A stretch of DNA of 64,000 nucleotides from an uncultured Verrucomicrobiota bacterium (GTDB lineage: Bacteria; Verrucomicrobiota; Kiritimatiellia; RFP12; UBA1067), in contig CAMNLW010000001.1 in assembly GCA_946544115.1 (NCBI GenBank), forward strand, positions 16,392 through 80,391, read 5' to 3'. Positions 11,784 to 63,578 of this stretch are shown in pieces. The notes below the pieces were generated by a model that searched no databases, was not told the DNA's origin, and saw only the letters and a list, made by a program, of their open reading frames with translations. A program made the position numbers and the translations under genes. Each line of letters begins with the position of its first letter. The stretch's first letter is position 1.

Positions 11784-11794
11784 GGAACGAAGCC

Positions 11795-31434: not shown

Positions 31435-31452
31435 CCAAAATTAGAGTATAAT
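31424..31452 (+). promoter_or_regulatory. near-consensus sigma70-type promoter for the secretin gene (TTGAAT-17 nt-TATAAT)
   Basis: The -35 element lies inside the last codons of the upstream gene. The -10 is 35 nt upstream of ATG 31488, with AAGGAG in between. Confidence 0.55.
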
Positions 31453-31487
31453 ACACTCAGACTTTGAACAAGGAGCATGAGATCGTT

Positions 31488-34400
31488 ATGACGAATCTGA
31501 AAAAAACCGCCGCCGTCAGCGTGGCCGCTGCCGTCATTGCCTGCGTACCGTTTGCGTTCGCACAAGACGACCTGGATGACTTGCTGAAAGATCTCGAAAG
31601 CGATCTTGCAGCCGAAACCGCCCCGGCGGAGGCCGTCGCGCCTGCGACAGTTGAAGAGCCTGTCGCCGAGGAACCAACGGCTGAGGAGCCTGTCGCTGAA
31701 GAGCCTGCCGCCGTGGAGCCAGTCGCCGACGAACCTGCACAGGAAGAACCCGCTGCCGAAGAACCCGCGGTCGAGGAACCTGCGCAGGAAGAACCTGCGG
31801 TCGAGGAGCCTGCAACGGAAGAGCCTGCTGTCGTCGCGCCTGCCGCTGAAGAACCGGTTGCGGTTGAACCGGCTGCCGAGGAGCCTGCCGTCGAAGAGCC
31901 TGCTGCGGCCGAACCCGAGCCTGCAGTTGTTGATGCAGGCCCTGTGGCTGTCGCGCCTGTTCCTGCGCCTGCGGCTGCGCCTGTCGATCCCGACGCCGAG
32001 CTTCTGGACAATCTGCGCACTACGGAGCGTCTGCGCCGCGAAGCATATGATGAACAGGCAAAGCGTGAAATCGTTGCTGCCCGCAAGAGCATGTCCGAGG
32101 GCGCTTATGATGACGCCACGCGCGCCTATGGCAATGCGCTCAAGCTTCTCAATGACAGTCCGGCGACCAAGGATCTCCGCCGCGAGTGCGAGCAGGGTAT
32201 TGCCGAGGGGCAGTACCGCCAGGCTCTCGAGGAGGAGCGTCTCGGGCGGCGCGAGAATGCCGTTGAGATGATGGAGAAAGCCAAGGCCCTGCGTCATCCC
32301 AAGGCCCGTCGCCAGCTTGAGGCCTGGAACAAGACGACCGACCCGAACGCCAACAAGACGGCGATCTCCGATGTCCGCCACCGCCGTAACGATGCGGACT
32401 ACAAGGCGCAGCGCGAGAAGAACCGCCGCCACCTGAGGCGCGCGCGCCAGCTCCTGTCGGTAAGGGATATCGACAAGGCTCTTGACGAGTGCGAGCTCGT
32501 GCTTGTGAACGACCCCTACAACCAGGAAGCGATTCGTCTAAGGGGCGCAATCCAGAAGAAGCGCGCGTTGATTCTCAATCAAGAGTTCAATGTGACGCGC
32601 GACGCCATGATCGCCGATGTCGACAAGGCGTGGCGGCCGGTGTATGCGCCAAACGCGCGCCAGCTCGAGGAGTCGGCTTCGTCTACGCTCAAGCGCTCGG
32701 TCGGCGACGATCCCGAGCGTTCGGTGGAACAGTCTATCATCCAGCGCATGAAGGAGATCGTCCTTCCCACGATTTCGTTCAAGCCGCCGGCGACGATTAT
32801 TCAGGCGATTGAAACATTCCGCACCTATTCAAAGGACTTCGACCGCCCCGACATTCCGCTTGAAGAGCGCGGTTTCAACTTTGTCGTGAAGATGCCCGAC
32901 GCGCTTCTTTCCAAAACATCGGAGCAGAGCGCCGACGACTCCGACGATTTCTCGTCGACCGGCGACGAGACCGATTCCAGCCAGGCGGGAGTGCCTATAA
33001 TACCGATGATCACGGCCAACGCCATCAGCTTCTACGACGCGCTCAAGCTTGTGTGCGATTCGGTCGACTACAAGTTCCAGGTAAAGGGGCCTGTCGTAAT
33101 GGTCATGCACAAGGATCAGGCGATCGACGAGATGATCACGCGCCAGTATCCTGTAATGGCCGCCTTCATGGAGAAGATGGATACCGTCTCCAACGATGTA
33201 AAGGAGATGGGGCTCGGCTTCGGCGGCGGCAGGTCCAACAGTCGCGGCGGCGACAGCGAGGAGGAGAACAAGGAGCAGGATTGGAAGGGCGTCTTCTCGG
33301 CTCTTGGTGTCCAGTGGCCCGAAGGCAGCACGATCTTCTATATGAAGGCGACGGGCAAGCTGTATGTCAAGAATACAGAGGAAAACCTTGCCGAACTTGA
33401 AAAGGCGCTTATCGCGCTCAACGCCGAACAGAAGCTTATCGAGATCGAGGCGCGCTTTGTCGAGGTTAGCCAGCAAGACCTCAACTCCCTCGGCTTTGAG
33501 TGGATACTGAACAGCAACTACACCCTCGGCAGCGGCGGCTGGCTCGGTCGCAAGCTCGGCATGAAGAAGGGCGGTTGGGGCGAAGGCTATAAAGCGCAGA
33601 CGCAGCCGATTCCGGTCAAAAACGCAGATGGTACTATTAGTAGTGTTGACACCACAACCTATACTGGCGACGGCAACACCTCGTGGCGCAAGACCGGGCT
33701 TGTCAACGGCACGCCTACGCGTCTTAACAGCGGTATTGCGGGTATTAACTCGATGGGCGGCGAGAACGCCACGTTCGGCGACGTGAACCGCTATCTCTCG
33801 CGCACGGGCAATGCCGTTTCGGGGCAGGACCAGTCGTCCAACGACCAGTTCATGAAGGTGAACGCGTTCCTCGGCTCGGCCGATCTCTCGATGATTCTCC
33901 ATATGCTTTCGCAGCGCACCGACACGGATCTCCTTTCCGCGCCGAAGGTGCTCACGCGCCCGGGTGAGAACGCGGTCATCAAGGTCGTCACCGAGTACAT
34001 CTACCCGACAGACTACAATGTGCAGCTGCAGTCCAGCTCGTCCTCGGGATCCAGTTCGAACGGCGGCAGCCAGTCGGCGATTCTTGCCGTGGTCGAGCCG
34101 GAGCAGTTCGAAACGCGCGAAGTCGGCGTAATCCTCGATGTAACCCCGACGCTCACGGATGACGGCAACTTGATCGACCTCAAGCTTGATACGAAGGTCG
34201 TCGACGAGCCTACATGGAAGAACTACGGTATGAAGATTCCGTATTCCGGCAACAGTTCGTCGCTGCAGAGCTTCGAGGGTATCGGCGAAATCTTCTCGTC
34301 GCTGGCTGAGTTGATCACTGATGTCGGTGGTGAGCTTACGACCAGCACGCGCCAGATGATTGTCGACAACGCTACAAGTTCTGCAATCAGCGCCATGGAT

Positions 34401-34757
34401 TCTCTCTCTGCAACAGGTGAAAAGAACATGACCTATTACGAGGCGCCTATGGAGCAGCCGTTCTTCCACGTTCGCTCGATTGTTTCCTCCGTCTCGATCA
34501 ATCCCGGGTCGACGATTGTCATGGGCGGTCTTATAACCGAGAGCCGTCAGGCTATGGACGACAAGGTTCCGTTCCTCGGCGATCTGCCTTTCGTCGGCAG
34601 GCTCTTCCGCAGCCATGCAGAGCAGACGATCAAGAAGAATCTCCTCATCTTCGTGACGAGCCGTCTTCTCGACGTCCGCGGCCGCGAGGTCGCGGCCGGC
34701 AGTCCCAACGATGGAGAAACGGGCGTCAAGTCAGCGCCTGAGGCTTCGGCGAATTGA
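31488..34757 (+). CDS. secretin (GspD/PilQ family; Amuc_1098-type) with an acidic EEPAx repeat and a helical TPR-like N-terminal region
   Basis: The C-terminal secretin signature is GSTIVMGGLITE...KVPFLGDLPFVGRLFRS...KNLLIFVTSRLL. Signal peptide MTNLKKTAAVSVAAAVIACVPFAFA. The track start is TTG 31464; ATG 31488 has AAGGAG 13 nt upstream. Confidence 0.9.
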   Translation: MTNLKKTAAVSVAAAVIACVPFAFAQDDLDDLLKDLESDLAAETAPAEAVAPATVEEPVAEEPTAEEPVAEEPAAVEPVADEPAQEEPAAEEPAVEEPAQEEPAVEEPATEEPAVVAPAAEEPVAVEPAAEEPAVEEPAAAEPEPAVVDAGPVAVAPVPAPAAAPVDPDAELLDNLRTTERLRREAYDEQAKREIVAARKSMSEGAYDDATRAYGNALKLLNDSPATKDLRRECEQGIAEGQYRQALEEERLGRRENAVEMMEKAKALRHPKARRQLEAWNKTTDPNANKTAISDVRHRRNDADYKAQREKNRRHLRRARQLLSVRDIDKALDECELVLVNDPYNQEAIRLRGAIQKKRALILNQEFNVTRDAMIADVDKAWRPVYAPNARQLEESASSTLKRSVGDDPERSVEQSIIQRMKEIVLPTISFKPPATIIQAIETFRTYSKDFDRPDIPLEERGFNFVVKMPDALLSKTSEQSADDSDDFSSTGDETDSSQAGVPIIPMITANAISFYDALKLVCDSVDYKFQVKGPVVMVMHKDQAIDEMITRQYPVMAAFMEKMDTVSNDVKEMGLGFGGGRSNSRGGDSEEENKEQDWKGVFSALGVQWPEGSTIFYMKATGKLYVKNTEENLAELEKALIALNAEQKLIEIEARFVEVSQQDLNSLGFEWILNSNYTLGSGGWLGRKLGMKKGGWGEGYKAQTQPIPVKNADGTISSVDTTTYTGDGNTSWRKTGLVNGTPTRLNSGIAGINSMGGENATFGDVNRYLSRTGNAVSGQDQSSNDQFMKVNAFLGSADLSMILHMLSQRTDTDLLSAPKVLTRPGENAVIKVVTEYIYPTDYNVQLQSSSSSGSSSNGGSQSAILAVVEPEQFETREVGVILDVTPTLTDDGNLIDLKLDTKVVDEPTWKNYGMKIPYSGNSSSLQSFEGIGEIFSSLAELITDVGGELTTSTRQMIVDNATSSAISAMDSLSATGEKNMTYYEAPMEQPFFHVRSIVSSVSINPGSTIVMGGLITESRQAMDDKVPFLGDLPFVGRLFRSHAEQTIKKNLLIFVTSRLLDVRGREVAAGSPNDGETGVKSAPEASAN
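31653..31922 (+). repeat. 15-nt periodic coding repeat: 18 consecutive EEPAx-type pentapeptides in the secretin
   Basis: EEPVA EEPTA EEPVA EEPAA VEPVA DEPAQ EEPAA EEPAV EEPAQ EEPAV EEPAT EEPAV VAPAA EEPVA VEPAA EEPAV EEPAA AEPEP. Confidence 0.9.
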
Positions 34758-34759
34758 CG

Positions 34760-37354
34760 ATGGTGCGCAAAGTTTCCATACTTTGCATGGTGGCGTCGCT
34801 GCTCTTCTCTTTGAAGGCAGCGACGCCGCTTGTCACACAATACATAGCACCTGTCGATAAACCTACTTGGGAGGACCGCGTACTGACGGGTGAATATGGT
34901 ACTGGTGCAGGTTTCAAATATAGTGCTGTGAAATCGTTATGGGGAGGAAATACATGGTATAATTTTGCGATATTTGTACAAGGTACGGATTTTGCTGATT
35001 CATGTTTTCTTGCATGGTCGAATTGGCTTAGGTTTACGGTGGATGGAAATCAGCTTCCGCTTGATAACCCATACACATGGACCCGTTCTGTTCAATCCAA
35101 AAAGCGGTATCTTTATTATCCGAAATTCAACGCAAGTGGTGCATTTGATAGTTCATCGTCGGCCGGCCACAAAACCGTCAAAACTACCGTAGGAGCGAAC
35201 CTACATCAGTTATTTGATTTGAATGGTTCTGATGCAACTTCTACTGGTGCAGCATACGTGCAGTGCGTCCATACCGACTGGGTTTATAAAGTGACCTTCG
35301 ATGCAAACGGCGGTAGCGGTACTATGGGCAATTTTGTGTTTACGAATTCCGCCGCGCTGCCTGCGAACGCATTCAGCAGAACGGGATATGATTTTTCGAG
35401 ATGGAATACGCGGGATGACGGATCGGGCACGTCCTACGGTGATGAGGCTGAGGTTCAAACGGATATTGATCCTTTACACGCCATCTGGTCTGCGAAGAGT
35501 TACAACATAACATTCTCGGGCGAGGGTGCTACAACCGAAGGAAAGCGCAGCTGCACGGTGAAGTATGACGGGAGTCTTGTTGACATGTCGTCGCCGGATC
35601 TGCCCAAGCGCACGGGATATGAGTTTGGCGGATATTTCTCCAAGCCGGAAGGTAAAGGCAAGCAGTGGTATTCGTCGACAGGGGAAGCCGCCGATGATCC
35701 TTGGAATGTTGCCGGCAATACTACATTATATGCCAATTGGATTGGTGCTGAATATTATGTCACGTATGCTAAAGGCGGCGATGATGTGACGGGAATAATG
35801 GATCGTCAGACTTTCATATATGGTAAGCCGCAGAAGTTGCTTGCGAACAAATACGAGCGTGAAGGCTATAATTTCATCGGATGGTCGGCGCATGAAAATG
35901 CGTATGTTGACTATGTCGATTGTGCGGTGGTAAGCAACCTTACTGACGTAGCCAAGGCAGACATTGTCCTTTATGCCATTTGGGAAAAAATAAAACCGCC
36001 GGAGACGGTTGCTGTAGTGTTTGATGCGAACGGCGGAGTGTTTGCTGCTGAGGCTGCCACCTATGAGCGCAATATCATCCTGGGTGGCAGGTTTGAATCT
36101 CTGCCTATGCCGACAAACGCCAACAATTCTCTGTTCTTTGCCGGCTGGTGGACATCGACAAACCCGGTCGATCGCGTTCAGATACTTTCCACAAACATCG
36201 TCGACGCCGCAATCACCAATCTCTACGCGCGGTGGAAGGCGGTTGTTTCTCCAGATTTGACTTTCAACCTTGCCGACGGCAAAACATTGACAAACGTTAC
36301 AGCCGTCATAGGCGACGAGTTCGGCAGGTGGTTCCTTGATCCTCCGCCGCAATACACTGGCGGTTACAGGCATTTCGGTTGGTACAGGGCAGACGGCAGC
36401 CGCGTTGAAGAGAATGATATCATAGAAGGAGACGAGACGCTGACCGGGCGTTGGACGCTTGGTGCATTCAACGATGCGTGGAACTGCGCGAATGTTCAAT
36501 TTGAAACGAGCGGCGAAAACGTTTCGGGCTGGGCTATGGACGAGACGAACAAGGTCGCGCGAAGCGGTGACGTATCCGGTCTTGGAACTGATGTGGAGGC
36601 AAAATCCTATCTCTTCATGAAGCCGGCGGTTGCAGGAACATTGTCCTTGAAACTTAGAACGTCATGTCTGCCTAAGCTAGATAATCAATGGCTCGCCTGT
36701 CTTGACATCAACAGTGCAACTAATCGTATCGGGGGGCCGGAATCCTGTCGAGACGTAAGCATACCTCTTGACGGCGACGCCACTTTTTATCTGAACTACT
36801 ATCAATTGGGCGGTTACGATAGCGTGGACTATACTGTAGAAGACTGTGCCTGGGCGAGCGACTTCAGCTTTGTGCCCGAAAACCCTCTCTCTGAATGGAC
36901 GGCGCTTGCCGACAAGACGCTTTCGGCGAAGACGGGCGGCTCGGCTCAATGGGTTGTTGCAGACGACGGCGATTCGCTCGTCATAACGAACCTGCCGGAT
37001 GCGCGCTCTGCATGGATCACGCTGGAGACTTCCAAGAGCCGCGCCGGCGTTCTTGAGTTCAAGTGGCGGACAAGCTGCGAGGATGGTTATATCGACACGA
37101 ACGGCGTGTACCAGGTGTGCGACAGGCTGGAGTTCCAGGATGAGCGCGGTGAAAGGACGCTTCGCATTGAAGGCGTGATGTCGGACTGGGAGAGCGTCGT
37201 ATGGACGAACAGCGTCGAGTCGGCTCATACCTTCACATGGCGCTATGTCAAGGACGGCGATGCTTCGGCCGGCGACGACGCGGCCTGGATCAAGGATGTC
37301 AAATGGACTCCTTTCCCGCCGGAGCCGAAACCTTTCCGCGTCCTCATCTGGTGA
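34760..37354 (+). CDS. secreted protein with Listeria-Bacteroides (Flg_new / InlB B-repeat) repeats and two C-terminal jelly-roll-like modules
   Basis: Five to six repeats of the VTFDANGGSGTM..F.R.GY.F.GW type. The C-terminus has two ...FKWRTSCE..D.L.F...W.YVKDG....DDAAWIKDV-like modules. Signal peptide MVRKVSILCMVASLLFSLKA. The track start is TTG 34754, which overlaps the secretin stop. Confidence 0.85.
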   Translation: MVRKVSILCMVASLLFSLKAATPLVTQYIAPVDKPTWEDRVLTGEYGTGAGFKYSAVKSLWGGNTWYNFAIFVQGTDFADSCFLAWSNWLRFTVDGNQLPLDNPYTWTRSVQSKKRYLYYPKFNASGAFDSSSSAGHKTVKTTVGANLHQLFDLNGSDATSTGAAYVQCVHTDWVYKVTFDANGGSGTMGNFVFTNSAALPANAFSRTGYDFSRWNTRDDGSGTSYGDEAEVQTDIDPLHAIWSAKSYNITFSGEGATTEGKRSCTVKYDGSLVDMSSPDLPKRTGYEFGGYFSKPEGKGKQWYSSTGEAADDPWNVAGNTTLYANWIGAEYYVTYAKGGDDVTGIMDRQTFIYGKPQKLLANKYEREGYNFIGWSAHENAYVDYVDCAVVSNLTDVAKADIVLYAIWEKIKPPETVAVVFDANGGVFAAEAATYERNIILGGRFESLPMPTNANNSLFFAGWWTSTNPVDRVQILSTNIVDAAITNLYARWKAVVSPDLTFNLADGKTLTNVTAVIGDEFGRWFLDPPPQYTGGYRHFGWYRADGSRVEENDIIEGDETLTGRWTLGAFNDAWNCANVQFETSGENVSGWAMDETNKVARSGDVSGLGTDVEAKSYLFMKPAVAGTLSLKLRTSCLPKLDNQWLACLDINSATNRIGGPESCRDVSIPLDGDATFYLNYYQLGGYDSVDYTVEDCAWASDFSFVPENPLSEWTALADKTLSAKTGGSAQWVVADDGDSLVITNLPDARSAWITLETSKSRAGVLEFKWRTSCEDGYIDTNGVYQVCDRLEFQDERGERTLRIEGVMSDWESVVWTNSVESAHTFTWRYVKDGDASAGDDAAWIKDVKWTPFPPEPKPFRVLIW

Positions 37355-52884: not shown

Positions 52885-54201
52885 ATGGCGACATTCCAAT
52901 ACATCGCAAAGGACTCCGCAGGCAACGAGACCCGCGGACAGATCGAAGCAGGCGACCGCAGTTCCGCAATCGCGGCGGTCCGCGCCCAGGGGCTGTTCCC
53001 GACGGCACTCGGCGAGGTGAAGTCCGCCCCCGCTGCAGCTGCGGTCGCGCCCGCCAAGGCGAAAAAGGCCAAAGCGCCGGCGAAGAAGTCCGGCGGGCTG
53101 AACAAAGACATCAAGATCAACATCAAGATGCCGTCGTGGATGCGCGGCAAGGTGAACACCAAGGTCCTCACCCAGTTCACGCGCCAGCTCGCGACGCTCG
53201 TCAACGCCGGCCTGCCGCTCATGCGCGGAATCGAGGTATTGAAGCGTCAGATGAAAGACCCCCAGATGGTCGAGGCGCTCGGCGGTATCGCCGACAACAT
53301 CGCCTCGGGCGGAACCTTCTCGGAGGCGCTCACGCAGTACCCGAAGATATTCGACAAACTCTATGTCAACATGGTGAAGGCCGGCGAGGCGGGCGGCGTG
53401 CTTGAAGTCGTCCTCGGGCGTCTGGCGGAGTTTGCCGAGAAATCCGAAAAGATCAAGAACAAGGTGAAGGGCGCGATGATCTATCCTATCGTCGTCCTCT
53501 TCGCGGCCATCGGCATCACGGGCTTCCTGCTCGTCGCGGTCATACCGAAGTTCAAGCAGGTGTTCAACGACATGCTCGGCGGCGCGGCCCTGCCGCCCAT
53601 CACCGAGGCCGTCATGCAGGCTTCCGAGTTCGTGCAGCACAACGGCCTCGTGATAGTCGCGATAGTCGCGGCGATCGTCGTGATAAAGAAGATCGTCGGC
53701 CACACCGAGGCGGGCGCCTACTTCTTCGACGTATGCTCGCTCAAGGCCCCTGTGACGGGAACCCTCGTGCAGCGCACGGCCGTTTCGCGCGTCACGCGAA
53801 CGCTCGGCACGCTGCTCTCCTCGGGCGTGCCGATCCTGCAGTCGCTAGTGATCGTGCGCGACACGACGGGCAACCGCGTCGTCTCGAAAGCGCTCCAGGA
53901 GGTTCATGACGCCGTGAAGGAGGGCGAGGGCATGACCCAGCCGCTGTCGCAGTGCCCCGTGTTTCCGCCGATGGTAGTCTCGATGGTGGAGGTCGGTGAA
54001 GAGACGGGCGCGCTCGCCGACATGCTTACGCGTATCGCCAACACCTACGACGACGAGGTCGACAACGCCGTCGCCGGCATGACCGCCGCGATCGAGCCTG
54101 CGCTCATCATCGTGCTCGCCGTCGTCGTCGGCACGATCGTCATCGCGATGTTCCTGCCGATGATCAAGATCATCTCTTCCGTGTCGGGAGGCGCGGCCTA
54201 A
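52885..54201 (+). CDS. gspF: type II secretion / type IV pilus platform protein (GspF/PilC family)
   Basis: FQYIAKDSAGNETRGQIEA start. Two GspF repeats (FTRQLATLVNAGLPL..., VTRTLGTLLSSGVPIL...) and three TM segments. Confidence 0.9.
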   Translation: MATFQYIAKDSAGNETRGQIEAGDRSSAIAAVRAQGLFPTALGEVKSAPAAAAVAPAKAKKAKAPAKKSGGLNKDIKINIKMPSWMRGKVNTKVLTQFTRQLATLVNAGLPLMRGIEVLKRQMKDPQMVEALGGIADNIASGGTFSEALTQYPKIFDKLYVNMVKAGEAGGVLEVVLGRLAEFAEKSEKIKNKVKGAMIYPIVVLFAAIGITGFLLVAVIPKFKQVFNDMLGGAALPPITEAVMQASEFVQHNGLVIVAIVAAIVVIKKIVGHTEAGAYFFDVCSLKAPVTGTLVQRTAVSRVTRTLGTLLSSGVPILQSLVIVRDTTGNRVVSKALQEVHDAVKEGEGMTQPLSQCPVFPPMVVSMVEVGEETGALADMLTRIANTYDDEVDNAVAGMTAAIEPALIIVLAVVVGTIVIAMFLPMIKIISSVSGGAA

Positions 54202-55353
54202 GTGAAGAAGGCCTTTACACTGGTTGAGCTCATGATCGTGGTCGTGGTGATCGCGATCCTGGCCAGCATAACGTTCAGGATAGCGGGCATCGGGCAGGAT
54301 TCAACCCAGCGCAACCGCACGATCGCCCGCCTCCAGCGCCTTGAAAACGCCATATCCGGCTACTTCGCGGCGTACGGCAGCTACCCGGCCGTTCCGCTGG
54401 AAGGCCGCAGCCGCAACATCTACTACAGGGTGAACGGCTACGGCATCCAGCAGACCGACAGCGAGCCCGATACTTCGCGCCTCGAATGGAAGCGCGTCGA
54501 GGCCGCATGCAGGGCGCAGCCGATCGCGATGTGCTTCCCGTTCGCCTCTTCGCGCCAAGAGTATGTAAGGACGGTCTCCGACGCCCTCAAGGAACTCCAC
54601 AACAGCAGCGACAAAACTTCGGCCTATGCCAAGAACGCGGCGCTCGCCTACGGCTTCGACGCGCTCGACAACCCCGAGACGCTGTCGTCCAAGAAGAACG
54701 AGAGCGACTGGACCCGGCTTCAGATGTTCCAGTTCGGCCTCATGAGCTTCCTCCTGCCGCGCTACCTGCTGATGATGGGTCACTCCAACAACAACGTCTA
54801 CGACAATTTCTCGCAGTGGAGCTCCAACAACCAGCTCCCGTGCAGGTTCGAGACGGGTGTCCCCTACGGCAGCTGGAACGAGCTCAACCAGGATCTCTCC
54901 AAGTCGGCAGAGAAGTGGAAGATCGCCCTCATGCCGTCGCAGGCCGTATGCGCGCGCTGGGTGGCGAACTTCGAGAACATCCTCTCCTGCGAGTCGGACC
55001 TCGTAGTATACGGTGTGCACTTGAAGGGCAGGGAGTATCGCGACGGCGGCAATGTCTCTGCCTACAACCCCTACCCTGTTCTCTACTCCGCCGCCAACAG
55101 CCAGGGCGGCGAGGGAACGAGCGGCAGCCAGCAGTATGCGCTCGACATAATAACCTGCCGCGACGGCTGGTATAACGAGTTCTACTACTACTCGCCGCCG
55201 CCCTACCAGACCTACCGCCTCTGGAGCGCCGGCCCGAACGGAAAGACGTTCCCTCCGTGGATCTCGCCCGAGGAGATAGAAAAGCTCAACGGCTCCGAAA
55301 AGAACACCGTCCGCAACTGGATGGCCGACGACATAGTGCATATGAGGAACTGA
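54202..55353 (+). CDS. prepilin-type N-terminal cleavage/methylation domain protein (383 aa, long pseudopilin)
   Basis: (M)KKAFTLVELMIVVVVIAILASI class III signal with Glu at +5. GTG start directly after the gspF stop, with GGGAGG upstream. Confidence 0.85.
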   Translation: MKKAFTLVELMIVVVVIAILASITFRIAGIGQDSTQRNRTIARLQRLENAISGYFAAYGSYPAVPLEGRSRNIYYRVNGYGIQQTDSEPDTSRLEWKRVEAACRAQPIAMCFPFASSRQEYVRTVSDALKELHNSSDKTSAYAKNAALAYGFDALDNPETLSSKKNESDWTRLQMFQFGLMSFLLPRYLLMMGHSNNNVYDNFSQWSSNNQLPCRFETGVPYGSWNELNQDLSKSAEKWKIALMPSQAVCARWVANFENILSCESDLVVYGVHLKGREYRDGGNVSAYNPYPVLYSAANSQGGEGTSGSQQYALDIITCRDGWYNEFYYYSPPPYQTYRLWSAGPNGKTFPPWISPEEIEKLNGSEKNTVRNWMADDIVHMRN

Positions 55354-55355
55354 TC

Positions 55356-55979
55356 ATGAAAAAAGGTTTTACTCTTGTTGAAATGCTTGTGGTCATGGGT
55401 ATTCTCGCGGTCCTGATGGGAGCGTCCCTCGGCGGATACTCCGCATTCGTGAAGAAAGCCCAGCGCGCGCGCGCCGTGGAGCTTGTCGCCAACGTGCAGA
55501 CCGCGCTGGAAGCCGTGCTGCAGCGCGAAGACGCGTGGCCCCGGGCGCTTCTCGCCGGCAACAACGGCGGCCGCGGCGAGATGACGGCCGAGGTCGGCGC
55601 GGCGCTCGCCAAGCGCGGCGTAATGTCGCTCACCTATAAGAAGACCGAACGCGACGGCGACACGATATACGTCCTCACGGGTCTCGACCAGTGCGGCATC
55701 GTTTCTCCATGGGCCGCCGCCGCCATAAAACGCGCTGCCGCCAACGGATCGGTCAGCGATTCGCTGAGGGTCGCCGAAGGCGGCACCATCGCGGACCATC
55801 GTCTCAGATACGCGATTGACGATGACTACGACGGTGTCACCGACGTCGGCGTGAGCCAGAACGGTTCAGGCTCGTGCAAGGTTCGCGCCAACGCCTGCGT
55901 GTGGTGCTGCGGCATGGACGGCAAGTTCGGCACGAAGGATGATATCTACAGCTGGTCCGCCGGACAGGAGGTGCACTGA
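55356..55979 (+). CDS. GspG-like pseudopilin (207 aa)
   Basis: MKKGFTLVEMLVVMGILAVLMG. The C-terminal GMDGKFGTKDDIYSW resembles the GspG G(A/P)DG..G..DDI..W tail. Confidence 0.85.
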   Translation: MKKGFTLVEMLVVMGILAVLMGASLGGYSAFVKKAQRARAVELVANVQTALEAVLQREDAWPRALLAGNNGGRGEMTAEVGAALAKRGVMSLTYKKTERDGDTIYVLTGLDQCGIVSPWAAAAIKRAAANGSVSDSLRVAEGGTIADHRLRYAIDDDYDGVTDVGVSQNGSGSCKVRANACVWCCGMDGKFGTKDDIYSWSAGQEVH

Positions 55980-56599
55980 TGAAAAAGGGTTTCACGCTTG
56001 TTGAAATGCTCGTCGTGATCGCCGTCATAGGCATTCTGGGCGGGATCGTCACCACGGCGGCCGTCGGCGCGATCAAGAACGGCCGCTCCAAGAGGGCCGA
56101 CGCGATGTGCGTCGCGCTCGAACAGGGAATCGCCGCCTATTACGCGCAGGAGGGAAACTGGCCCGACGCGATCGAGAAAAAGGCGCAGTCGATGGATTCC
56201 GCCACCTACACCTTCACGCCCGACGAGGCCGACAGCATATTCCAGGATGTCGTAGGGTGCGGCTTCGGCAAGGGTCACGCGAGCCACAAGGCGATGCTCG
56301 TCGACGCGACGGCCCTCTTTGTGTGCGACAAGTCGAGCGTCGGCAACCAGCAGCGCGGCTGCTACGACAACCATTCCAACAAGAAAGAGCGAAGAACGTA
56401 CTGCGCCGGCATGGGGTGCCGCAACGGCATCGACTTCTCGGAGGCGACCAAGAAGGGCGGGAAAGTCCGCATACCGTTCTCACAGATGGCGTTCGGCTTT
56501 CAGGGGCCGGAAAACGGCAAGTTCTGCCGGTTCTGGATCACCTATAACGGACAGGCCGATTCGGTCTCGGTTTCAAGACGCGGCCCGGACCTGAACTGA
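55979..56599 (+). CDS. prepilin-type pseudopilin (206 aa)
   Basis: MKKGFTLVEMLVVIAVIGILGGIV. TGATG overlap with the upstream gene. Confidence 0.85.
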   Translation: MKKGFTLVEMLVVIAVIGILGGIVTTAAVGAIKNGRSKRADAMCVALEQGIAAYYAQEGNWPDAIEKKAQSMDSATYTFTPDEADSIFQDVVGCGFGKGHASHKAMLVDATALFVCDKSSVGNQQRGCYDNHSNKKERRTYCAGMGCRNGIDFSEATKKGGKVRIPFSQMAFGFQGPENGKFCRFWITYNGQADSVSVSRRGPDLN

Positions 56600-56612
56600 C
56601 GGAGGCGACTTG

Positions 56613-57431
56613 ATGCGCAAAGGGTTTACATTGCTGGAACTGCTCGTCGTCGTCGGCATCATGGGCATGCTCGGCGTCGCCGCGGCCGGCGGATATTCCG
56701 CGCTTGTGCGCGGCATGAGCGAACGCGGCGCGGTGGCGTCGGCGGCGTCGCTTCTGAGGGCCGCGAAGGAGCGCGCCCAGGTCGACAGGTCCCCGACGGT
56801 CGTCTACTGCTACAACAGGCTCGTCAAGGAACCGACAGGCGTGGACGACAACGGCGTGGTAGTGGGCGTAATGACGGCGGTGCGCCGCGCGGGGCGCATA
56901 ACCTACACGACCGGCGGCGACGTGCTCTATGATGAATTCGCCGACCTCGACCGCAACTACGAATATGAGACGAGCACGACAGACCTCAAGAAGGGCGGCG
57001 GCTTTCGTCTCTTCCGCATAAGCGGCAGAGTCAACAAGATGGAGTATTCCATCGTTTCCGACAGAGTCCTGCGCGACGAGAACAACACCGTGACGGTTTT
57101 TTCCGGCAGCCAGCAGGGCGGCCGCACGAACCTCCTCATGAGCGCTTTCGTGAAGACGGGCGTCACGAGCGCCAACGAGGCCCAGTGGAAGATAGGCGAC
57201 GGCTACGGAATGGAGTTCGCCGAGGTGCAGCTGCCCGACGGTTACATCTTCGGCAAGACAGTTCCGTCCCAGGCGGGGCGCGTGACGGTGGAGAAGGTCG
57301 TGTATTTCGACCCCGACCAGGATTCCACCGAGACGATCGATGTATGGTCCACCAAGCCGAACGCCTCGGGCATGCCGCAGGCGTTCAAGAAGGCCGGTCA
57401 GGCTTCGGCCGACAACGACAAGGGAGTGTAG
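56613..57431 (+). CDS. prepilin-type pseudopilin (272 aa, GspH-like position)
   Basis: MRKGFTLLELLVVVGIMGMLGV. The track start is TTG 56610, one codon upstream. Confidence 0.8.
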   Translation: MRKGFTLLELLVVVGIMGMLGVAAAGGYSALVRGMSERGAVASAASLLRAAKERAQVDRSPTVVYCYNRLVKEPTGVDDNGVVVGVMTAVRRAGRITYTTGGDVLYDEFADLDRNYEYETSTTDLKKGGGFRLFRISGRVNKMEYSIVSDRVLRDENNTVTVFSGSQQGGRTNLLMSAFVKTGVTSANEAQWKIGDGYGMEFAEVQLPDGYIFGKTVPSQAGRVTVEKVVYFDPDQDSTETIDVWSTKPNASGMPQAFKKAGQASADNDKGV

Positions 57432-57433
57432 CG

Positions 57434-58012
57434 ATGAAGTTCATGAAAAACAGGCCTGGCTTTACGCTGCTTGAGGTGAATCTCGCCATATTCATCATGG
57501 CGACCGGCGTGCTTGTTATGTGCGGTCTTTACTCTCTAGGCTTCAGGGAGAACCGCCAGAGCGTCGAGGACGTGGCATCCGCCGCGTTTGCCGACGCCTA
57601 CCTGGGGCCGCTTGTCCAGGGGCTTTCGGCGACGAACATGCCCTGGTCGGCATGGATACAGATCGGCGACTCGCCGTCCAACAGCGACACCACCCGCGTC
57701 GCCGACGGCGTATGGCCGAGCGACGGATGGATGTCTTACGTGCAGCAGGTCGGCACCACGGCCAACTACCGCATAAAGGGAACACCACGCGCCACCGCCG
57801 ACGGCGTGTTCCAGAAAATCCTCTCCAAGGTGCCCTCGCCATACAAGGGGAGCAACCCGGGGCTTCCTTCCGATTACCAGTACGGGTTCGTGGCGACGCG
57901 CTGCGGCGCGACGGTCCAGCTGGCGTTCAGAGCGTCGCGGCGCAAGGAGGCGCTCATGTCACAGCCGCTCTTCGTTTCTGAGGTTCACTTCCAGGGAGAT
58001 CCGGAGAGATGA
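57434..58012 (+). CDS. minor pseudopilin (GspI-like N-terminus, 192 aa)
   Basis: MKFMKNRPGFTLLEVNLAIFIMATGVLVM. The track ORF 57185 extends upstream inside the preceding gene. Confidence 0.8.
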   Translation: MKFMKNRPGFTLLEVNLAIFIMATGVLVMCGLYSLGFRENRQSVEDVASAAFADAYLGPLVQGLSATNMPWSAWIQIGDSPSNSDTTRVADGVWPSDGWMSYVQQVGTTANYRIKGTPRATADGVFQKILSKVPSPYKGSNPGLPSDYQYGFVATRCGATVQLAFRASRRKEALMSQPLFVSEVHFQGDPER

Positions 58013-58521
58013 AAAAGGGCTTTACACTTGTCGAGCTTATGGTGGCGAGCCTCCTGCTCGCGATGCTCGTGACGATTCTTACCATGATGTTCAACCAGTC
58101 GTCCATCGCGTGGCGGACCGGCACGGCAGGCGTCGCCGACCTCAACGAGACGCGCTGGTCGCTCGGCTCCTTCCACGACGTGCGCGACGAGGCTCTGCCG
58201 GGTCTAGGCGACCAGTCTCCCTCGGTCGGCGCGAGCGACAGCAGGACGGTCAAGTACCGCACAATGCCGCTTTGGGATCCGAACGGCGACAACAGACTCC
58301 GCAACAGGCGGGCGTTCAGCATCGAGAACTCCAGCATGAACTGGGGCCACGCGCCGAGCTTTTCGATAAACGACGCCATGACTGCGGCGAAGAAGGCGGT
58401 GTCGGGCGCAGGCAACGGCGGCGGCTCCTCGCTCTTCACCGTCGGCGTGAGGAGCGCCGGGCCCAACAGGACGTTCGGCGACGAGGACGACATAACAACC
58501 TGGCCGGAGGACATCGACTGA
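58009..58521 (+). CDS. minor pseudopilin (GspJ-like N-terminus, 170 aa)
   Basis: MKKGFTLVELMVASLLLAMLVTILTMMFNQSSIAW. ATGA overlap with the upstream gene. Confidence 0.8.
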   Translation: MKKGFTLVELMVASLLLAMLVTILTMMFNQSSIAWRTGTAGVADLNETRWSLGSFHDVRDEALPGLGDQSPSVGASDSRTVKYRTMPLWDPNGDNRLRNRRAFSIENSSMNWGHAPSFSINDAMTAAKKAVSGAGNGGGSSLFTVGVRSAGPNRTFGDEDDITTWPEDID

Positions 58522-59003
58522 TGAAGAAGGCTTTTACACTTGTCGAACTTCTGGTCGTGATCGCGATGATAGCGGTTCTGACCGGCGCCATGACTGTGGC
58601 GGTGAACGGAGCGCGAACGCGCGCGAAGATTTCAAAGGCCACCCAGGAGGCGAAGGAGATGACCAACGCAATCCTCGCCGGCGAGCAGTATGCGCGCGGG
58701 AGGACGCTCGAAGATTACGCCAACGGCTCGTGGGCGGACTGCTCCGAAGGGGCGAAGGCGATGCGTCTCATACTCGGCGGCGAGACGAGCGAAAGCGGCG
58801 AAACCATACCGGTTCTCTTCAACGCCAATCTGTCGCGCGGCTACCAGCTCGACCCGTGGGGCAAGCCCTACCAGTATATGATACAGAAGACGGCGAGCCT
58901 TTCGAGCGACGACGCGACCGGCGGCAAGGTACAGTTCTGCACGGCGCCCGCCCTGCCGAACTTCTTCAGGCTCACAGACAAGGAGCGTAGTTGTGATCGT
59001 TGA
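58521..59003 (+). CDS. gspG: type II secretion major pseudopilin GspG-like (160 aa)
   Basis: MKKAFTLVELLVVIAMIAVLTGA...AKISKATQEAKEM and the conserved DPWGKPYQY core. TGATG overlap with the upstream gene. Confidence 0.85.
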   Translation: MKKAFTLVELLVVIAMIAVLTGAMTVAVNGARTRAKISKATQEAKEMTNAILAGEQYARGRTLEDYANGSWADCSEGAKAMRLILGGETSESGETIPVLFNANLSRGYQLDPWGKPYQYMIQKTASLSSDDATGGKVQFCTAPALPNFFRLTDKERSCDR

Positions 59004-62000
59004 AAAGTCCAGAAAAGGTTCCGCGCTGCTTATCGTAATCGGAATGCTCTCGTTCATGGTCGTCTCGGCCGTGAGCTTCTCGATATACATGCGCCAGAGC
59101 CGCGTGCCCTCGAGCTACCTGCGCCGCGCGTCGTCGTCGCGCTACCTCCTCAAGGCCGCGCTCGCCCACGCGATAGACCGGCTTGACGGCACCTTCGCGA
59201 GCTATGCCGATATAAACGAGCCGTCTCTCGGGAACAGTTCTGTGAACGGACTTGTCGAAGGTGTATATGACGATCCCTACCCGGGCGTAGGCCCGTCGCA
59301 GAGCAATGACAACGACACTTATCACCGACGAAACGGCGACTTTTGGGATCACCGCGTATTCACTCCGTTCGGCATGGTCTCGCCGCTCAAGACAGTATCC
59401 ACCATGACGCTCGAAGGCCTCGCCTACGTTCCGCCGGCCCTCATCAACGAGGCGCGCATCTATTCTCGCCAGACGCGCACAGCCATGTGGCGCAACCTTT
59501 CCTACGACATGGGGCGCTATGCGTTCTCGGCTATAGACGTTTCGGACTGCTTCGACATCAACCGCGTCCGCGCTGGCGAGCGCCGCACATCCGCGCCCGA
59601 CGGCCGCGTCAACCTCTCGTCTCTTTACGACACGAACGGTTCGACGCTAGACCAGAAGCTCAAGCTGTGGGAGAACGACGACATTCCTTTTGTTTCGGTT
59701 GCCGACTTCAACATCGCCGCCGGGCAGAGCCCGTTCACGCCCTTTTACAAGTACATCGGCTCCACCAGCAGCGAAATCTACAGTTCTGGCGACGCCAACA
59801 CAGTTTCCAATGCGCTCTTTATAACCGACACCTGGTTCCCCGCGACGAACAGCACGACATCGGTCAAGCGCTACGACCTGGCAGGGAAAGACCAGCCCTT
59901 CATGCAATATCCAGATACAATGTCTCTAAGGGACATGATAACCGGGACGACCGATTTCTGCAAGATGCTCACCAAGAACATTGGCGTAGGCATCGCCTGC
60001 CTTTACGACTACCTTGATGAAGACAGCTTCCCGATTTCGTTCTGTCTGCCGACGGTCGAAGCGGCTCCTATGATATGCGGTATCGGCCTTCTGCACAACA
60101 ACTCGTTCACCCCCACAGTCGCGGCCGGGAATGACATTGTCGAGGGCGAGTATACGAAGGACAGGCAGAAAGTAAAGTGGAGAGCCACCCCCTACAGACT
60201 GACAAAGCTTGCCGGCGCGATGCTTCTCAACGGAGCAGCGACGTTTCCTTTCAAGCGCCTTGGCGCGAGAGACGGCTATCAGACGTCGTTCACCGGTCGT
60301 GCGCTCGTAAGGATCTTCATGGGACCTCCCTCGATGAAGTGCCGTGTTGCAGGCAACTCGCCGCTTTATCCAACAAAAAACGACTGGAACAACAGCAATC
60401 AGACTGTTGCCGACGGTATGGTTTCCTATGCGGTCGATCTCGACCAGGTCCAGTTTGCCCAGAATATAGAGAAGCAGGATGACGCTGTTAAAAACCTTAC
60501 GGCCCGTCTCACCCTGCAGCAGGTCAACAGCATCGTCTACTGGCTTGTAGAGCAGGAGGGTATGGACGAAGAAGGCAACCGCACGCAATTCGATCCATAT
60601 ATATCGTTCGACGGCTGCGCGGGCGGTCTTGCGCCTCGAGATGCCGACGGAAAGATTGAAAGCTGGTGGACCGCCCAGACCAAAAACCCCGCGCCGACTC
60701 CCGAGCGGCTGCCGACGCAGTCTACCGTAAGCACCGCGCAGTATGTACCGCATATTGCGGTCTGGATGAGGCTTGACAGCGGTTCGGATACGGTGGACAT
60801 CGTTCCTGCCCGTCTTGACGACGACGCTACATGGGGCAGGCGTTCTGTGAACCTTGCAAACCAGGCCGACAAGTTCGGCGGCGCGGGAACCCCGATCCTT
60901 GAGTTCCGCGGCCAGCGGCCTTTTACATATTCTCTTGACAACGACACTGGTATAGCTACGGTTTTGAACGGAACGGCCGAGTCATTTGACAACTGGGCCG
61001 AGTTCTACGCGCCCGACCCTCGCTACAACTATGCGCCCGAGGATTGGTGCCCTTCGAAGGGCAATGGCGCGGTTACAGGCGCCAAATGGCTCGACAGGCT
61101 TGGCGCGAAGGACGGCAGCGGCAGCATCATGGGCAAGAATGGGCGCGACAAGGACATATTCATGTTTGTAAGCGACCAGGAGTACATGCAGTCCATCGGC
61201 GAGCTTGAGTTTCTTCCGCTTCTCGCGGACCTTAACGGCAGCCAGAACTTCTTTGACAACAACTTCCTCGACGCGATGAGTGCCAACTTGAACGGAGCCG
61301 ACTTTGCGTCGCGTACGATACTTAGCGATGGTGACAAGCTCTCGCTCAACGGTCTCGCAAGCCGCGACTTCATGTGGCGCACGTATTCCGCGTATGACGG
61401 CGACCCGATATACGATCTTCGCGACGGCAGTGCTCCGGTGGAGGTTGTGAACGGAACGGGAGACTTCAGGGTGAATCCGTTCTCCAGCGATACGCGTGTT
61501 CTCATGGCGGCGCTCAAGGACACGCCCTTCGACTACTATGTGGCGAGCACCAACAAGACTCTGAACAACACTGTGAACGACAAGCCTGCAAACGCCCAGA
61601 AATATGCGTTTGCACGAGGCTCGACTTATGCCCCGCTCGATGACGACGAGTTGCAGGATCTTGCCTCTGCCATGCGCACGGGCTTTACGGCGTCCGCCAA
61701 GGATGGTCGTTCATGGGAGAGTGCATTTGAAGAACTTGAGTGGTACAGGAATTCTGAATACGGCGACGAACAGCTTTCTCTCTTCGGCGTCGATCTAAAC
61801 AATCCGCTTCACGGTGTCGACCGTAAGTATCTTCATGCGTTCTGGCGCGACTGCTTCCAGAACAGGCAACAGCTGTTCCTGGTGTTCATAAGGGCCGAGC
61901 CTCTTTCGGTCGGCGGTTCCGCCTCGAGCACGGCCGCGAGCTCCCAGCTCGGCGCGCGCGGTGTCGCGCTCGTCTGGCGCGATCCTGCGCCGCCGGTGCG

Positions 62001-62115
62001 CGGCGGGAACCGTCCTTCGCGTCTCGACCTTGTCTCGCGCGAGCAGTGGCGACAGTTCTACCAGAGCTATGCGCCCCACCGCACAAGGGTTCTCTTCTAC
62101 CATCAGTTTGAATGA
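58993..62115 (+). CDS. giant GspK-like protein (1040 aa), putative filament tip/cap protein
   Basis: The N-terminus KGSALLIVIGMLSFMVVSAVSFSIYM...LLKAALAHAIDRL resembles the GspK RGxALLxVL leader, which lacks Glu at +5. GTG start with AAGGAG 7 nt upstream, overlapping gspG by 11 nt. I recognise nothing in the remaining ~950 aa. Confidence 0.8.
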   Translation: MIVEKSRKGSALLIVIGMLSFMVVSAVSFSIYMRQSRVPSSYLRRASSSRYLLKAALAHAIDRLDGTFASYADINEPSLGNSSVNGLVEGVYDDPYPGVGPSQSNDNDTYHRRNGDFWDHRVFTPFGMVSPLKTVSTMTLEGLAYVPPALINEARIYSRQTRTAMWRNLSYDMGRYAFSAIDVSDCFDINRVRAGERRTSAPDGRVNLSSLYDTNGSTLDQKLKLWENDDIPFVSVADFNIAAGQSPFTPFYKYIGSTSSEIYSSGDANTVSNALFITDTWFPATNSTTSVKRYDLAGKDQPFMQYPDTMSLRDMITGTTDFCKMLTKNIGVGIACLYDYLDEDSFPISFCLPTVEAAPMICGIGLLHNNSFTPTVAAGNDIVEGEYTKDRQKVKWRATPYRLTKLAGAMLLNGAATFPFKRLGARDGYQTSFTGRALVRIFMGPPSMKCRVAGNSPLYPTKNDWNNSNQTVADGMVSYAVDLDQVQFAQNIEKQDDAVKNLTARLTLQQVNSIVYWLVEQEGMDEEGNRTQFDPYISFDGCAGGLAPRDADGKIESWWTAQTKNPAPTPERLPTQSTVSTAQYVPHIAVWMRLDSGSDTVDIVPARLDDDATWGRRSVNLANQADKFGGAGTPILEFRGQRPFTYSLDNDTGIATVLNGTAESFDNWAEFYAPDPRYNYAPEDWCPSKGNGAVTGAKWLDRLGAKDGSGSIMGKNGRDKDIFMFVSDQEYMQSIGELEFLPLLADLNGSQNFFDNNFLDAMSANLNGADFASRTILSDGDKLSLNGLASRDFMWRTYSAYDGDPIYDLRDGSAPVEVVNGTGDFRVNPFSSDTRVLMAALKDTPFDYYVASTNKTLNNTVNDKPANAQKYAFARGSTYAPLDDDELQDLASAMRTGFTASAKDGRSWESAFEELEWYRNSEYGDEQLSLFGVDLNNPLHGVDRKYLHAFWRDCFQNRQQLFLVFIRAEPLSVGGSASSTAASSQLGARGVALVWRDPAPPVRGGNRPSRLDLVSREQWRQFYQSYAPHRTRVLFYHQFE

Positions 62116-63578
62116 CGGCCGCGGTGCTCCTTCTGGCCGCCGCGACTGCGGCTGGCGCACTCGGCGGCTTCTCCGAAGGGGCCAGGCGCGAGCTCGAGTC
62201 CCGCATATCATCGACCCTTGCAGAGGCGGGGACTTCTTCTGATGTATCGGGAACGGTTACTTTCGCCAACGGCGACTTCTTTTTCATACAGAGCGGATCA
62301 GACGCTCTCAAGGTTCTCACGCGCGGCCCTGTTCGCGCCGACCCGCCGCCACGTGTAGGCGAAATCGTCGAAGTGTCGGGCCGTCCTGTTCTTGAAGGCG
62401 GGCGTGTCGTGATGTCCGCCGACGCGTGGAAGACCGTCGGCGCCGCAGGTCTCCCCGAGCCTGTAGCCGCCGACGCCGACTCTCTCGTCTACGCAGGCCT
62501 GGCGCCACGCGGTAAGTGGCGAGCCGCATCGCGCGATCCAAACGACGTGAACTGGCGTCGCGTGGAGGTCGTCGGCCGCGCAATGGGGCGCACCGAGAAC
62601 GGCTTTTCGCTCGAGGTAGCCGACGGCCTTCTCATAAGCGTGATGATACGCGACAAGCCTTCTTTCATTGCGAACTGCGAACGTCTCCACCCTAAGGTCT
62701 CGGTTCGCGGCGTCGCCGAACTCTTTCTCGACCAGAGCGCGCTCTTCGGACGCGGCAGATATGTGATAGGTGTCAGGCTCTGTTCGGCTTCGGCCGACGA
62801 CGTGACGCTCCTGCCGGATTTAGGCTACCAGATGCGCCTGCACGAGCGGAGAGTGTCCATCGCGCTGTGGTCTTCGGTCGCGGCGCTTGTTCTCGGTCTC
62901 GGCGCGCTCATGCTGGTTCTTGTTCGCCACCGCCGGGACAGCCACGCGACCGCGATGGTCATGGCCGACCGCAAGCGCATGGCCGACGACCTCCACGACA
63001 CCATCGAGCAGCATCTCGCCGGTGCGGGCATGCTGCTCAAGCTCGCGCGCATGCCTGCGAACAATCTCGCCGAGCGCGCCGACCGCCCCATACGCGAGGC
63101 GCAGGACATCCTCGTGCGGGCAAAGCGTGAAATGCGCGACATCGTATGGGGCCTCAAGAATGACGACATGATGCGAAAGTCGCCGGCCGACATGCTGCGC
63201 GAGATGGCGGCCGACATGACGCGCCAGGGACTCTTCAGGGTGAGGACGCGTCTCGTTGGGCTGCCAGAGCGGATGGAAGGCGGCAGAATACGCGATCTTT
63301 CCCTTATCGTCCGCGAGGCGATCGGCAACGCCGTCCGCCATGGCCGCGCCCGCAAGATAGCGGTGACGTGCGATCCGATAGGCGAGGGCCCCGGCTGGTT
63401 CCTGCGCGTCGCGAACGACGGGCGCCCCTTTGACCGCGCCGCTGCGCCAGGCCCCGCCGAGGGACACTTCGGGCTGGAGGGCATGGCCGAACGCGCGCGC
63501 CGCATAGGCGGCGAGCTTTCATTCTCGCGCAAGGGCAAGTGGACCGTTGTCACGTGTGCCGTGCGCGCGGAAATATGA
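62112..63578 (+). CDS. sensor histidine kinase (HisKA_3 / HATPase_c, NarX-LiaS type) with a periplasmic sensor domain
   Basis: Signal/TM segment, ~230-aa extracytoplasmic part, TM helix VSIALWSSVAALVLGLGALMLVLV, H-box ADDLHDTIEQHLAGAG, N-box REAIGNAVRHG, G-boxes VANDGRPF and GHFGLEGMAERA. ATGA overlap with the upstream gene. Confidence 0.88.
   Translation: MTAAVLLLAAATAAGALGGFSEGARRELESRISSTLAEAGTSSDVSGTVTFANGDFFFIQSGSDALKVLTRGPVRADPPPRVGEIVEVSGRPVLEGGRVVMSADAWKTVGAAGLPEPVAADADSLVYAGLAPRGKWRAASRDPNDVNWRRVEVVGRAMGRTENGFSLEVADGLLISVMIRDKPSFIANCERLHPKVSVRGVAELFLDQSALFGRGRYVIGVRLCSASADDVTLLPDLGYQMRLHERRVSIALWSSVAALVLGLGALMLVLVRHRRDSHATAMVMADRKRMADDLHDTIEQHLAGAGMLLKLARMPANNLAERADRPIREAQDILVRAKREMRDIVWGLKNDDMMRKSPADMLREMAADMTRQGLFRVRTRLVGLPERMEGGRIRDLSLIVREAIGNAVRHGRARKIAVTCDPIGEGPGWFLRVANDGRPFDRAAAPGPAEGHFGLEGMAERARRIGGELSFSRKGKWTVVTCAVRAEI

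Follow-up and report, generated by a model that had tools for sequence, protein, structure and literature searches.

A giant GspK-like protein as the putative cap subunit of a conserved pseudopilin cassette in gut Kiritimatiellia

We analyzed a 64,000-nucleotide stretch of DNA from an uncultured Verrucomicrobiota bacterium of the Kiritimatiellia (assembly GCA_946544115.1, contig CAMNLW010000001.1, positions 16,392 to 80,391; hereafter the window) and focused on a giant gene that ends an operon of pseudopilin genes (58993..62115, +; all features given below lie on this strand). We consider its 1040-aa product, with a probability of roughly 60%, to be a giant and highly divergent minor pseudopilin of the GspK type, that is, the cap (tip) subunit of a type IV filament resembling that of type II secretion systems (T2SS). 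This reading is based on a motif, remote homology, synteny and the pattern of conservation. What type IV filaments and T2SS pseudopili come into contact with, be it cargo, surfaces or DNA, is set by their tip subunits, and GspK-like scaffolds with inserted modules, such as ComZ and CofB, are rare and well-studied examples. Large GspK-like or modular pilins located at the tip are already an established concept (PMC6561018, PMC8179133, PMC7248040), and the cassette described here is not a new kind of system; what is new is an unannotated, very abundant and unusually large GspK-like family in a distinctive eight-gene cassette.

The giant gene, its leader and its remote similarity to GspK

The reading frame, taken with its stop codon from a list of open reading frames (ORFs), starts with GTG and is preceded at a distance of 7 nt by a ribosome-binding site (AAGGAG, 58980..58985) that was read directly from the sequence. 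It overlaps the upstream pseudopilin gene, whose TGA occupies positions 59001-59003, by 11 nt. A preliminary description of the window had given the same coordinates, length, start codon, AAGGAG and 11-nt overlap with a gene that it called gspG, and all of these were confirmed on the sequence. The predicted mass of the protein is ~115 kDa, about three times that of GspK. Authentic GspK sequences carrying both Pfam domains, which we retrieved for comparison, were ~290-390 aa long, so the size contrast drawn earlier against GspK proteins of ~300-350 aa was also borne out. The ORF is a real gene and not a chance frame, since it has full-length homologues at 40-91% identity and a confident AlphaFold2 model. 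The possibility of two fused genes, raised in the same description, was rejected because close and distant homologues were all full-length and collinear.

The N-terminus of the protein reads MIVEKSRKG|SALLIVIGMLSFMVV, with Ile and not Glu at position +5, in agreement with the GspK-like start without Glu+5 that had been noted at the outset. This region (residues 1-65, 58993..59187) comprises a basic leader up to Gly9 and the helix alpha1 with ~21 hydrophobic residues. Of the family members whose N-terminus was intact, 238/238 had the Gly-1/Ser+1 junction; their median leader was 9 residues long, and position +5 was I, V, T, L or M, never Glu. A hydrophobic stretch of ~21-23 residues follows the leader, and a signal-peptidase I site is not obvious. 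The giant protein was the sole member of the cassette to lack Glu5, its junction in the window being K-S-R-K-G|S-A-L-L-I. The window protein gave zero matches in Pfam, in NCBIfam and in a sequence search of all PDB chains, and the N-methylation signature (Pfam N_methyl, TIGR02532) was found neither in it nor in the 42 members of the family alignment that we used for library scans and AlphaFold2 modelling.

We compared the family with an alignment of 30 diverse GspK sequences by profile-profile comparison using hhalign. Family residues 5-65 matched GspK residues 3-63 with 88% probability (E 2.8e-6). When the helix was removed, family residues 66-360 scored 33.7 against GspK 66-327, relative to a column-shuffle null of 14.9 +/- 3.0 (maximum 24.4; 0/60 shuffles as high), and the core of this match aligned the family pattern 'W..NLSYD.GRYAFcAVDVSDCFDINKL' with 'WA....G.v..i.D...CFNLNaL' of GspK. 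Block-wise tests were run against GspK without its helix, with 40 column shuffles each. The signature block (residues 166-196, 59488..59580, 'W..NLSYD.GRYAFsAiDVSDCFDINrv') matches the same GspK pattern; residues 168-196 scored 31.4 against GspK 85-113 (E 5.9e-5; null 12.3 +/- 2.8, z 6.9, 0/40), and the block contains the invariant residues G174, R175, Y176, A177, V183, S184, D185, F187, D188 and N190. The acidic motif (residues 325-351, 59965..60045, 'aCLYDYLDeDsfPiS') matches 'l.DWiD.D' of the GspK alpha-domain (DYIDVDDSP in E. coli), and this block scored 21.4 against GspK 121-156 (E 0.0033; null 11.2 +/- 2.2, z 4.6, 0/40). In GspK, the acidic 'DWxDxD' motif of the alpha-domain is a calcium site. 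A motif of the 'DYLDxD' type occurred in 247/247 family proteins, and no similarity to the GspK alpha-domain was detectable in the family outside this motif. The match of block 730-741 ('YLQSIGELaFLP') to GspK 177-188 ('l.dvsELr.v') was collinear and weak (z 1.9, 2/40).

Some candidate matches were set aside. Block 201-299 (z 3.3, 0/40) was not counted as independent evidence because its alignment fell on 'cFNLNaL' of GspK, the segment already matched by the signature block. Matches drawn by eye between residues 801-860 ('RVNPFS') and GspK 'NVNTA', and between residues 921-1040 and the C-terminal strands of GspK, found no signal in the block tests, in which family blocks 361-699, 761-920 and 921-1040 were all without GspK signal. 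A visually appealing correspondence of three C-terminal strands with GspK found no support, given its sub-null score, and the greedy alternative alignments of hhalign were uninformative.

To combine the conserved parts in one comparison, a conserved-core alignment was assembled from alpha1C and from those family columns whose 40-aa window reached an identity of 0.6 or more. This core matched GspK 3-114 in a single hhalign alignment of 112 columns with 94.9% probability (E 4e-8). As a specificity control, the same core was compared with the ordinary pseudopilins of the cassette, and these gave 0.3-9.7% over 13-27 columns. In a permissive library scan, NCBIfam T2SS_GspK (NF037980) was the only recurrent family, matching 36 of the 42 members (best E 3.5e-5). 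Taken at the level of sequence profiles, these results show a very remote but specific relationship to the N-terminal half of GspK that extends to about residue 351. The preliminary description had recognised no motif in the ~950 aa beyond the N-terminus; this held for library families, whereas profile-profile comparison brought out GspK-like blocks as far as that residue.

Conservation of the family and of its cassette

A search of 5.8 billion proteins returned 608 matches. The best 120 of these were all full-length (1024-1137 aa, 40-91% identity), none of the 120 carried a Pfam domain, and the few that were named read 'hypothetical protein [Kiritimatiellae bacterium]'. A profile search of 1.84 billion representatives at 50% identity gave 1,079 clusters with E <= 1e-3, of which 423 had E <= 1e-30, and the best 150 of the 1,079 were almost all 970-1190 aa long. 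Of the family proteins that we collected, 246/247 had at least 950 aa, with a median of 1075 aa. The family has no Pfam or NCBIfam assignment, and literature searches on Kiritimatiellota pilins and secretion systems and on the Verru_Chthon cassette found no description of it in the library searched. Gut and rumen metagenomes are very rich in this family, which escapes Pfam, NCBIfam and signature-based surveys of modular pilins alike.

The carriers of the family were gut and rumen Kiritimatiellia metagenome-assembled genomes (MAGs), together with a few records bearing implausible names. At eight loci (L005, L006, L011, L017, L027, L028, L047 and L061) a cassette of the Kiritimatiellia type had been deposited under the name of an unrelated organism (Gemmiger, Barnesiella, Faecalibacterium, Alistipes, Methanomethylophilaceae, Lachnospiraceae or Clostridiales). 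These contigs probably belong to 'cleanbin' MAG records that were mislabelled or contaminated.

Conservation was uneven along the protein. Column identity was highest at residues 1-40 (0.75), 121-200 (0.80) and 921-1000 (0.73-0.83) and lowest at residues 361-720 (0.34-0.50), giving the picture of a conserved assembly core that bears a diversifying module.

The operon in the window begins with a gspF-type gene, continues with seven pseudopilin genes and has the giant gene last. The first gene (52885..54201) encodes an inner-membrane platform protein of the GspF/PilC type (Pfam T2SSF, E 1.8e-64; TIGR02120 GspF, 384 bits, with PilC models similar). The pseudopilin genes (54202..59003) each encode a G-F-T-L-x-E prepilin motif, and Pfam N_methyl was found in 7/7; in order, they lie at 54202-55353 (383 aa), 55356-55979, 55979-56599, 56610-57431, 57434-58012 (pp5), 58009-58521 (pp6) and 58521-59003 (pp7). 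The ORF list merges or extends two of them, and judging by the prepilin motif their likely true starts are ATG 57434 (MKFMKNRPGFTLLEV) and ATG 58521 (MKKAFTLVELL). The classical GspG signature was split over adjacent genes, with 'LDPWGxPY' in pp7 and the C-terminal loop in pp6, whose end, 'S.GPDG..DT.DDITTWP', had a PDB match to that loop of GspG (E 0.003). A weak T2SSG match was also present in the 383-aa first pseudopilin (residues 315-348). From these motifs, the neighbours of the giant gene look GspG-derived.

Synteny was assessed at 64 other loci, 61 of them from species-representative genomes, with flanks of +/-10 kb. Wherever the upstream DNA of a locus reached far enough, each of the seven pseudopilins had its orthologue, in unchanged order and at near-identical offsets, ending at the giant gene. 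The giant gene was always terminal in a pseudopilin cassette, and the concern that its homologues might be found only outside pilin operons was put to rest. In 29 loci, including the window, a gspF gene immediately preceded the cassette, and in the others it was absent from the flank. None of the 64 loci had a gene for GspC, GspL, GspM or a prepilin peptidase in its flanks of +/-10 kb; a GspE-like ATPase was nearby in one locus and a secretin in one. Kiritimatiellia are an uncultured gut lineage that degrades polysaccharides, and a name for the family would give their conserved eight-gene secretion or pilus cassette an annotation.

A second machinery cluster lies upstream in the window (27687..34757) and encodes a PilM-type protein, an uncharacterised 336-aa protein, a 370-aa protein with TSP3 repeats and a long secretin. 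The 543-aa PilM-type assembly protein (27687..29318; Pfam PilM_2, E 1.6e-41) is a probable component of the same machine as the pseudopilins. Likewise, the 1097-aa secretin (31464..34757; Pfam Secretin, E 6.4e-31, with a tblastn match of E. coli GspD at 34458-34655) is its probable outer-membrane channel. This secretin is unusually long, and its N-terminal region is proline-rich.

Predicted architecture, proposed mechanism and alternative readings

The AlphaFold2 model of the full protein, built from the 42-sequence alignment, had a mean pLDDT of 85.9 and a pTM of 0.83, with helices at residues 11-36 and 41-65 in the N-terminal region. The least conserved part is a variable, family-specific beta-rich module (residues 352-716, 60046..61140; mean column identity 0.34-0.50 relative to 0.75-0.83 in the core), for which ~14 strands were predicted with a pLDDT mostly >85. 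We found no significant Foldseek, Pfam or PDB match for it and no GspK signal in the block tests. The C-terminal block (residues 921-1040, 61753..62112), which ends in 'PHRTRVLFYHQFE', is predicted to form a helix, three strands (961-969, 988-996 and 1031-1039) and a helix, with a column identity of 0.73-0.83. Altogether ~700 residues of the protein resemble no known structure by Foldseek yet are confidently modelled. The full model had no significant match in the viral structure library (BFVD), and weak beta-sandwich, lectin and tail-fibre Foldseek matches in PDB and BFVD (E > 1e-3, TM <= 0.06) were taken as noise.

We also modelled residues 1-356 alone (pLDDT 75.2). In this isolated fragment the strand 175-182 was lost and its local pLDDT fell from ~86-89 to 59-72. 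The comparison of the two models suggests that the sheet partners of this strand lie beyond residue 356, as in a pilin sheet that is interrupted by an insertion (GspK, ComZ; PMC6561018). The extra mass seems to consist of an insertion placed in the GspK-like alpha-domain or behind it and of further sequence at the C-terminus. The preliminary description had proposed that a cap function may be fused to a large module displayed at the tip, with a possible role in adhesion, substrate capture or cargo handling; the GspK-type N-terminus, with homology beyond the helix, agrees with the cap part of this proposal, but the extra mass does not look like a simple C-terminal fusion.

If the protein is a GspK-type cap, the motif in its leader suggests that the basic residues and the following ~21 hydrophobic residues would insert it into the inner membrane, where a prepilin peptidase would cleave after the invariant Gly9. 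Glu5 of ordinary subunits pairs with the subunit above, and GspK and PilX, which lack it, sit on top. By analogy, the giant protein could occupy only the top position of the filament because it has no Glu5. The seven co-inherited pseudopilins with Glu5 would, judging by synteny, form the filament below it on the GspF platform, under or through the secretin. The mass of ~115 kDa would exclude the protein from the filament body, on the steric argument made for ComZ and PilB. As the cap, it may start assembly and stay at the tip, with the variable module (~352-716, within or after the GspK-like alpha-domain) facing outward and contacting cargo or an external ligand. This module is therein a defined target for asking what the filament binds.

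Several observations weigh against assigning the protein to the GspK type. Foldseek comparison of the full model with PDB gave nothing at E <= 1e-3 (best E 2.4e-3, TM <= 0.06), the top 50 matches were a mixture of beta-sandwiches that included neither GspK nor a pilin nor PilY1, and the fragment of residues 1-356 had zero PDB matches at E <= 10. The structural resemblance to GspK, minor pilins, PilY1 or carbohydrate-binding folds that had been envisaged for the protein was not seen by Foldseek with either model, and the putative core of a GspK-like fold is discontinuous in the sequence. The matches to NF037980 reached 14-19 bits against a cutoff of 130 and always covered residues ~3-70, and the window protein itself had no such match. 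Pfam T2SSK_1st (PF21687), T2SSK (PF03934) and PilX_N were found in none of the 42 members at E <= 10. The C-terminus of the family scored below the shuffled mean against the C-terminus of GspK, with no significant similarity. In addition, PDB profile searches among pp5, pp6 and pp7 for equivalents of GspI or GspJ, the partners of GspK in the tip complex, returned only generic pilin helices and GspG motifs, and neither an ATPase gene nor a prepilin peptidase gene was found in the window.

Three other explanations were considered. The protein could be an uncleaved bitopic inner-membrane protein whose large periplasmic part serves the machine in assembly, alignment or secretin coupling, in the functional slot of GspC/GspL/GspM or PilN/O/P, and not as a filament subunit. 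This would be in keeping with the failure to find GspC, GspL and GspM within +/-10 kb at any locus, with an N-terminus that is also compatible with a signal anchor and with the lack of a pilin fold detected by Foldseek. However, the N-terminal 350 aa match GspK specifically, non-membrane blocks included, and a plain anchor would hardly account for the invariant Gly-1/Ser+1. The gene also stays linked to the pseudopilin genes at loci without a neighbouring gspF, and the window encodes a PilM-type (GspL-like) protein at another place. We therefore regard a membrane factor of this kind as unlikely.

Alternatively, the resemblance to GspK could be convergent or spurious, arising from short motifs and a hydrophobic helix in an unrelated membrane-anchored protein that is genetically linked to the cassette. 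Each matching block is indeed short (12-60 columns), the hhalign probabilities without the helix were 10-41%, the structure searches give no support and the C-terminal half is without GspK signal. Against this, three independent blocks are collinear with GspK, each scoring above all column-shuffled controls, the joint alignment reached 95% probability relative to <10% for the control pseudopilins, and an independent curated GspK model recurred in 36/42 members, which makes a chance resemblance very unlikely. It is just as improbable that the protein is a non-pilin tip adhesin of the PilY1/PilC type, or a dedicated secreted cargo, whose gene merely accompanies those of the pseudopilins. A length of ~1040-1180 aa and a place at the close of a minor-pilin operon are reminiscent of pilY1, a comparison that the preliminary description had made too, and the variable middle is as expected of an exposed binding module, but a PilY1/PilC domain or propeller was found by Pfam in 0/42 members, no PilY1 structure was among the Foldseek matches, and the hydrophobic stretch of ~21-23 residues is GspK-like, with no obvious signal-peptidase I site.

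The reading as a GspK-type cap can be taken further, although the extension is speculative and rather doubtful. The eight-gene cassette might represent a distinct class of type IV filament specific to Kiritimatiellia, in which one ~115-kDa protein of largely novel fold combines a GspK/PilX cap with a rapidly diversifying ligand-binding head of the size of PilY1. If this were true, a single protein would form the whole tip in place of an I-J-K(+Y1) complex, and the diversifying head might serve to capture glycans from the host or the diet, or as a docking site for very large secreted enzymes.

Relation to known systems and other features of the window

The closest comparison is with GspK/XcpX/EpsK (PDB 3CI0, 5VTM; PF21687 + PF03934; NF037980), with which the giant protein has in common a Gly-1 leader without Glu5, the helix alpha1, the 'W...G...D...CFNLN' block, the acidic 'DW/YxDxD' motif and the last place in the pseudopilin operon. 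Like GspK, it is the largest subunit of its set. It differs from GspK in its length (1040 aa, family median 1075, versus ~290-390), in falling below all curated cutoffs, in the lack of Foldseek similarity and in having ~700 residues without a counterpart. The sets differ as well, since the giant protein is accompanied by seven pseudopilins of which none is recognisable as GspI or GspJ, whereas GspK is accompanied by four.

ComZ of Thermus thermophilus is a GspK-like pilin with a ~380-aa beta-solenoid inserted in the pilin beta-sheet and has been proposed to be a DNA receptor at the tip (PMC6561018). The two proteins are alike in joining a GspK-like scaffold to a very large extra module, in being missed by standard pilin signatures and in being argued to occupy the tip only. 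However, we found no sequence or structural match between them, the extra mass of the giant protein is about twice that of ComZ, and its predicted secondary structure is mixed alpha/beta and not a solenoid. Large modules on GspK-like or modular tip pilins have been described for ComZ (PMC6561018) and for CofB, PilB and GspK (PMC8179133, PMC7248040), and the modular type IV pilins include PilB and PilC of Streptococcus sanguinis and CofB/TcpB of type IVb pili (PMC8179133). With these the giant family shares a pilin-type N-terminus and bulky, probably tip-exposed modules that often lie outside database signatures. Modular pilins, however, carry the canonical N-methylation signature IPR012902 and have their modules appended C-terminally (PMC8179133), whereas the giant family is without this signature. 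It would be missed by the InterPro-based survey of modular pilins because the N_methyl/TIGR02532 signature is absent, and it exceeds the largest modular pilin of that 2021 survey, which had 860 aa (PMC8179133).

The likeness to PilY1/PilC of type IVa pili lies in a similar size, a place at the end of the minor-pilin operon and a presumed location at the tip. PilY1 is a non-pilin with a Sec signal and a C-terminal beta-propeller. The giant family has no such domain or fold, by Pfam in the 42 members and by Foldseek, and its long hydrophobic helix is GspK-like and not Sec-like. The Verru_Chthon cassette (TIGR02600 for protein A, with proteins B, C and D) is similar in belonging to the PVC superphylum and in pairing a large protein with prepilin-motif proteins. 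The link to its protein A suggested in the preliminary description was not recovered, as TIGR02600 had no match in the window protein and matched 1/42 members (E 0.029). On the other hand, pp5, pp6 and pp7 gave weak, N-terminal-only NCBIfam matches to Verru_Chthon B, C and D, in that order and far below cutoffs, a hint that such cassettes are distantly related across the PVC superphylum.

Directly downstream of the giant gene, a gene for a HisKA_3/HATPase_c histidine kinase (62112..63578) overlaps its stop by 4 nt (ATGA). Since this kinase was found downstream in 0/64 other loci and is unique to the window, it is not part of the conserved cassette. The secretin gene is followed by a gene for an 866-aa protein with Listeria-Bacteroides repeats (34754..37354). 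Two giant ORFs are located near the start of the window, one of 3599 aa (443..11242) whose product has an N-terminal Gly_rich_2 domain and one of 3992 aa (11660..23638) whose product combines a ConA-like lectin domain (Laminin_G_3) with bacterial TSP3 repeats. Both products are probably huge surface or secreted proteins and are possible clients of the nearby secretion machinery.

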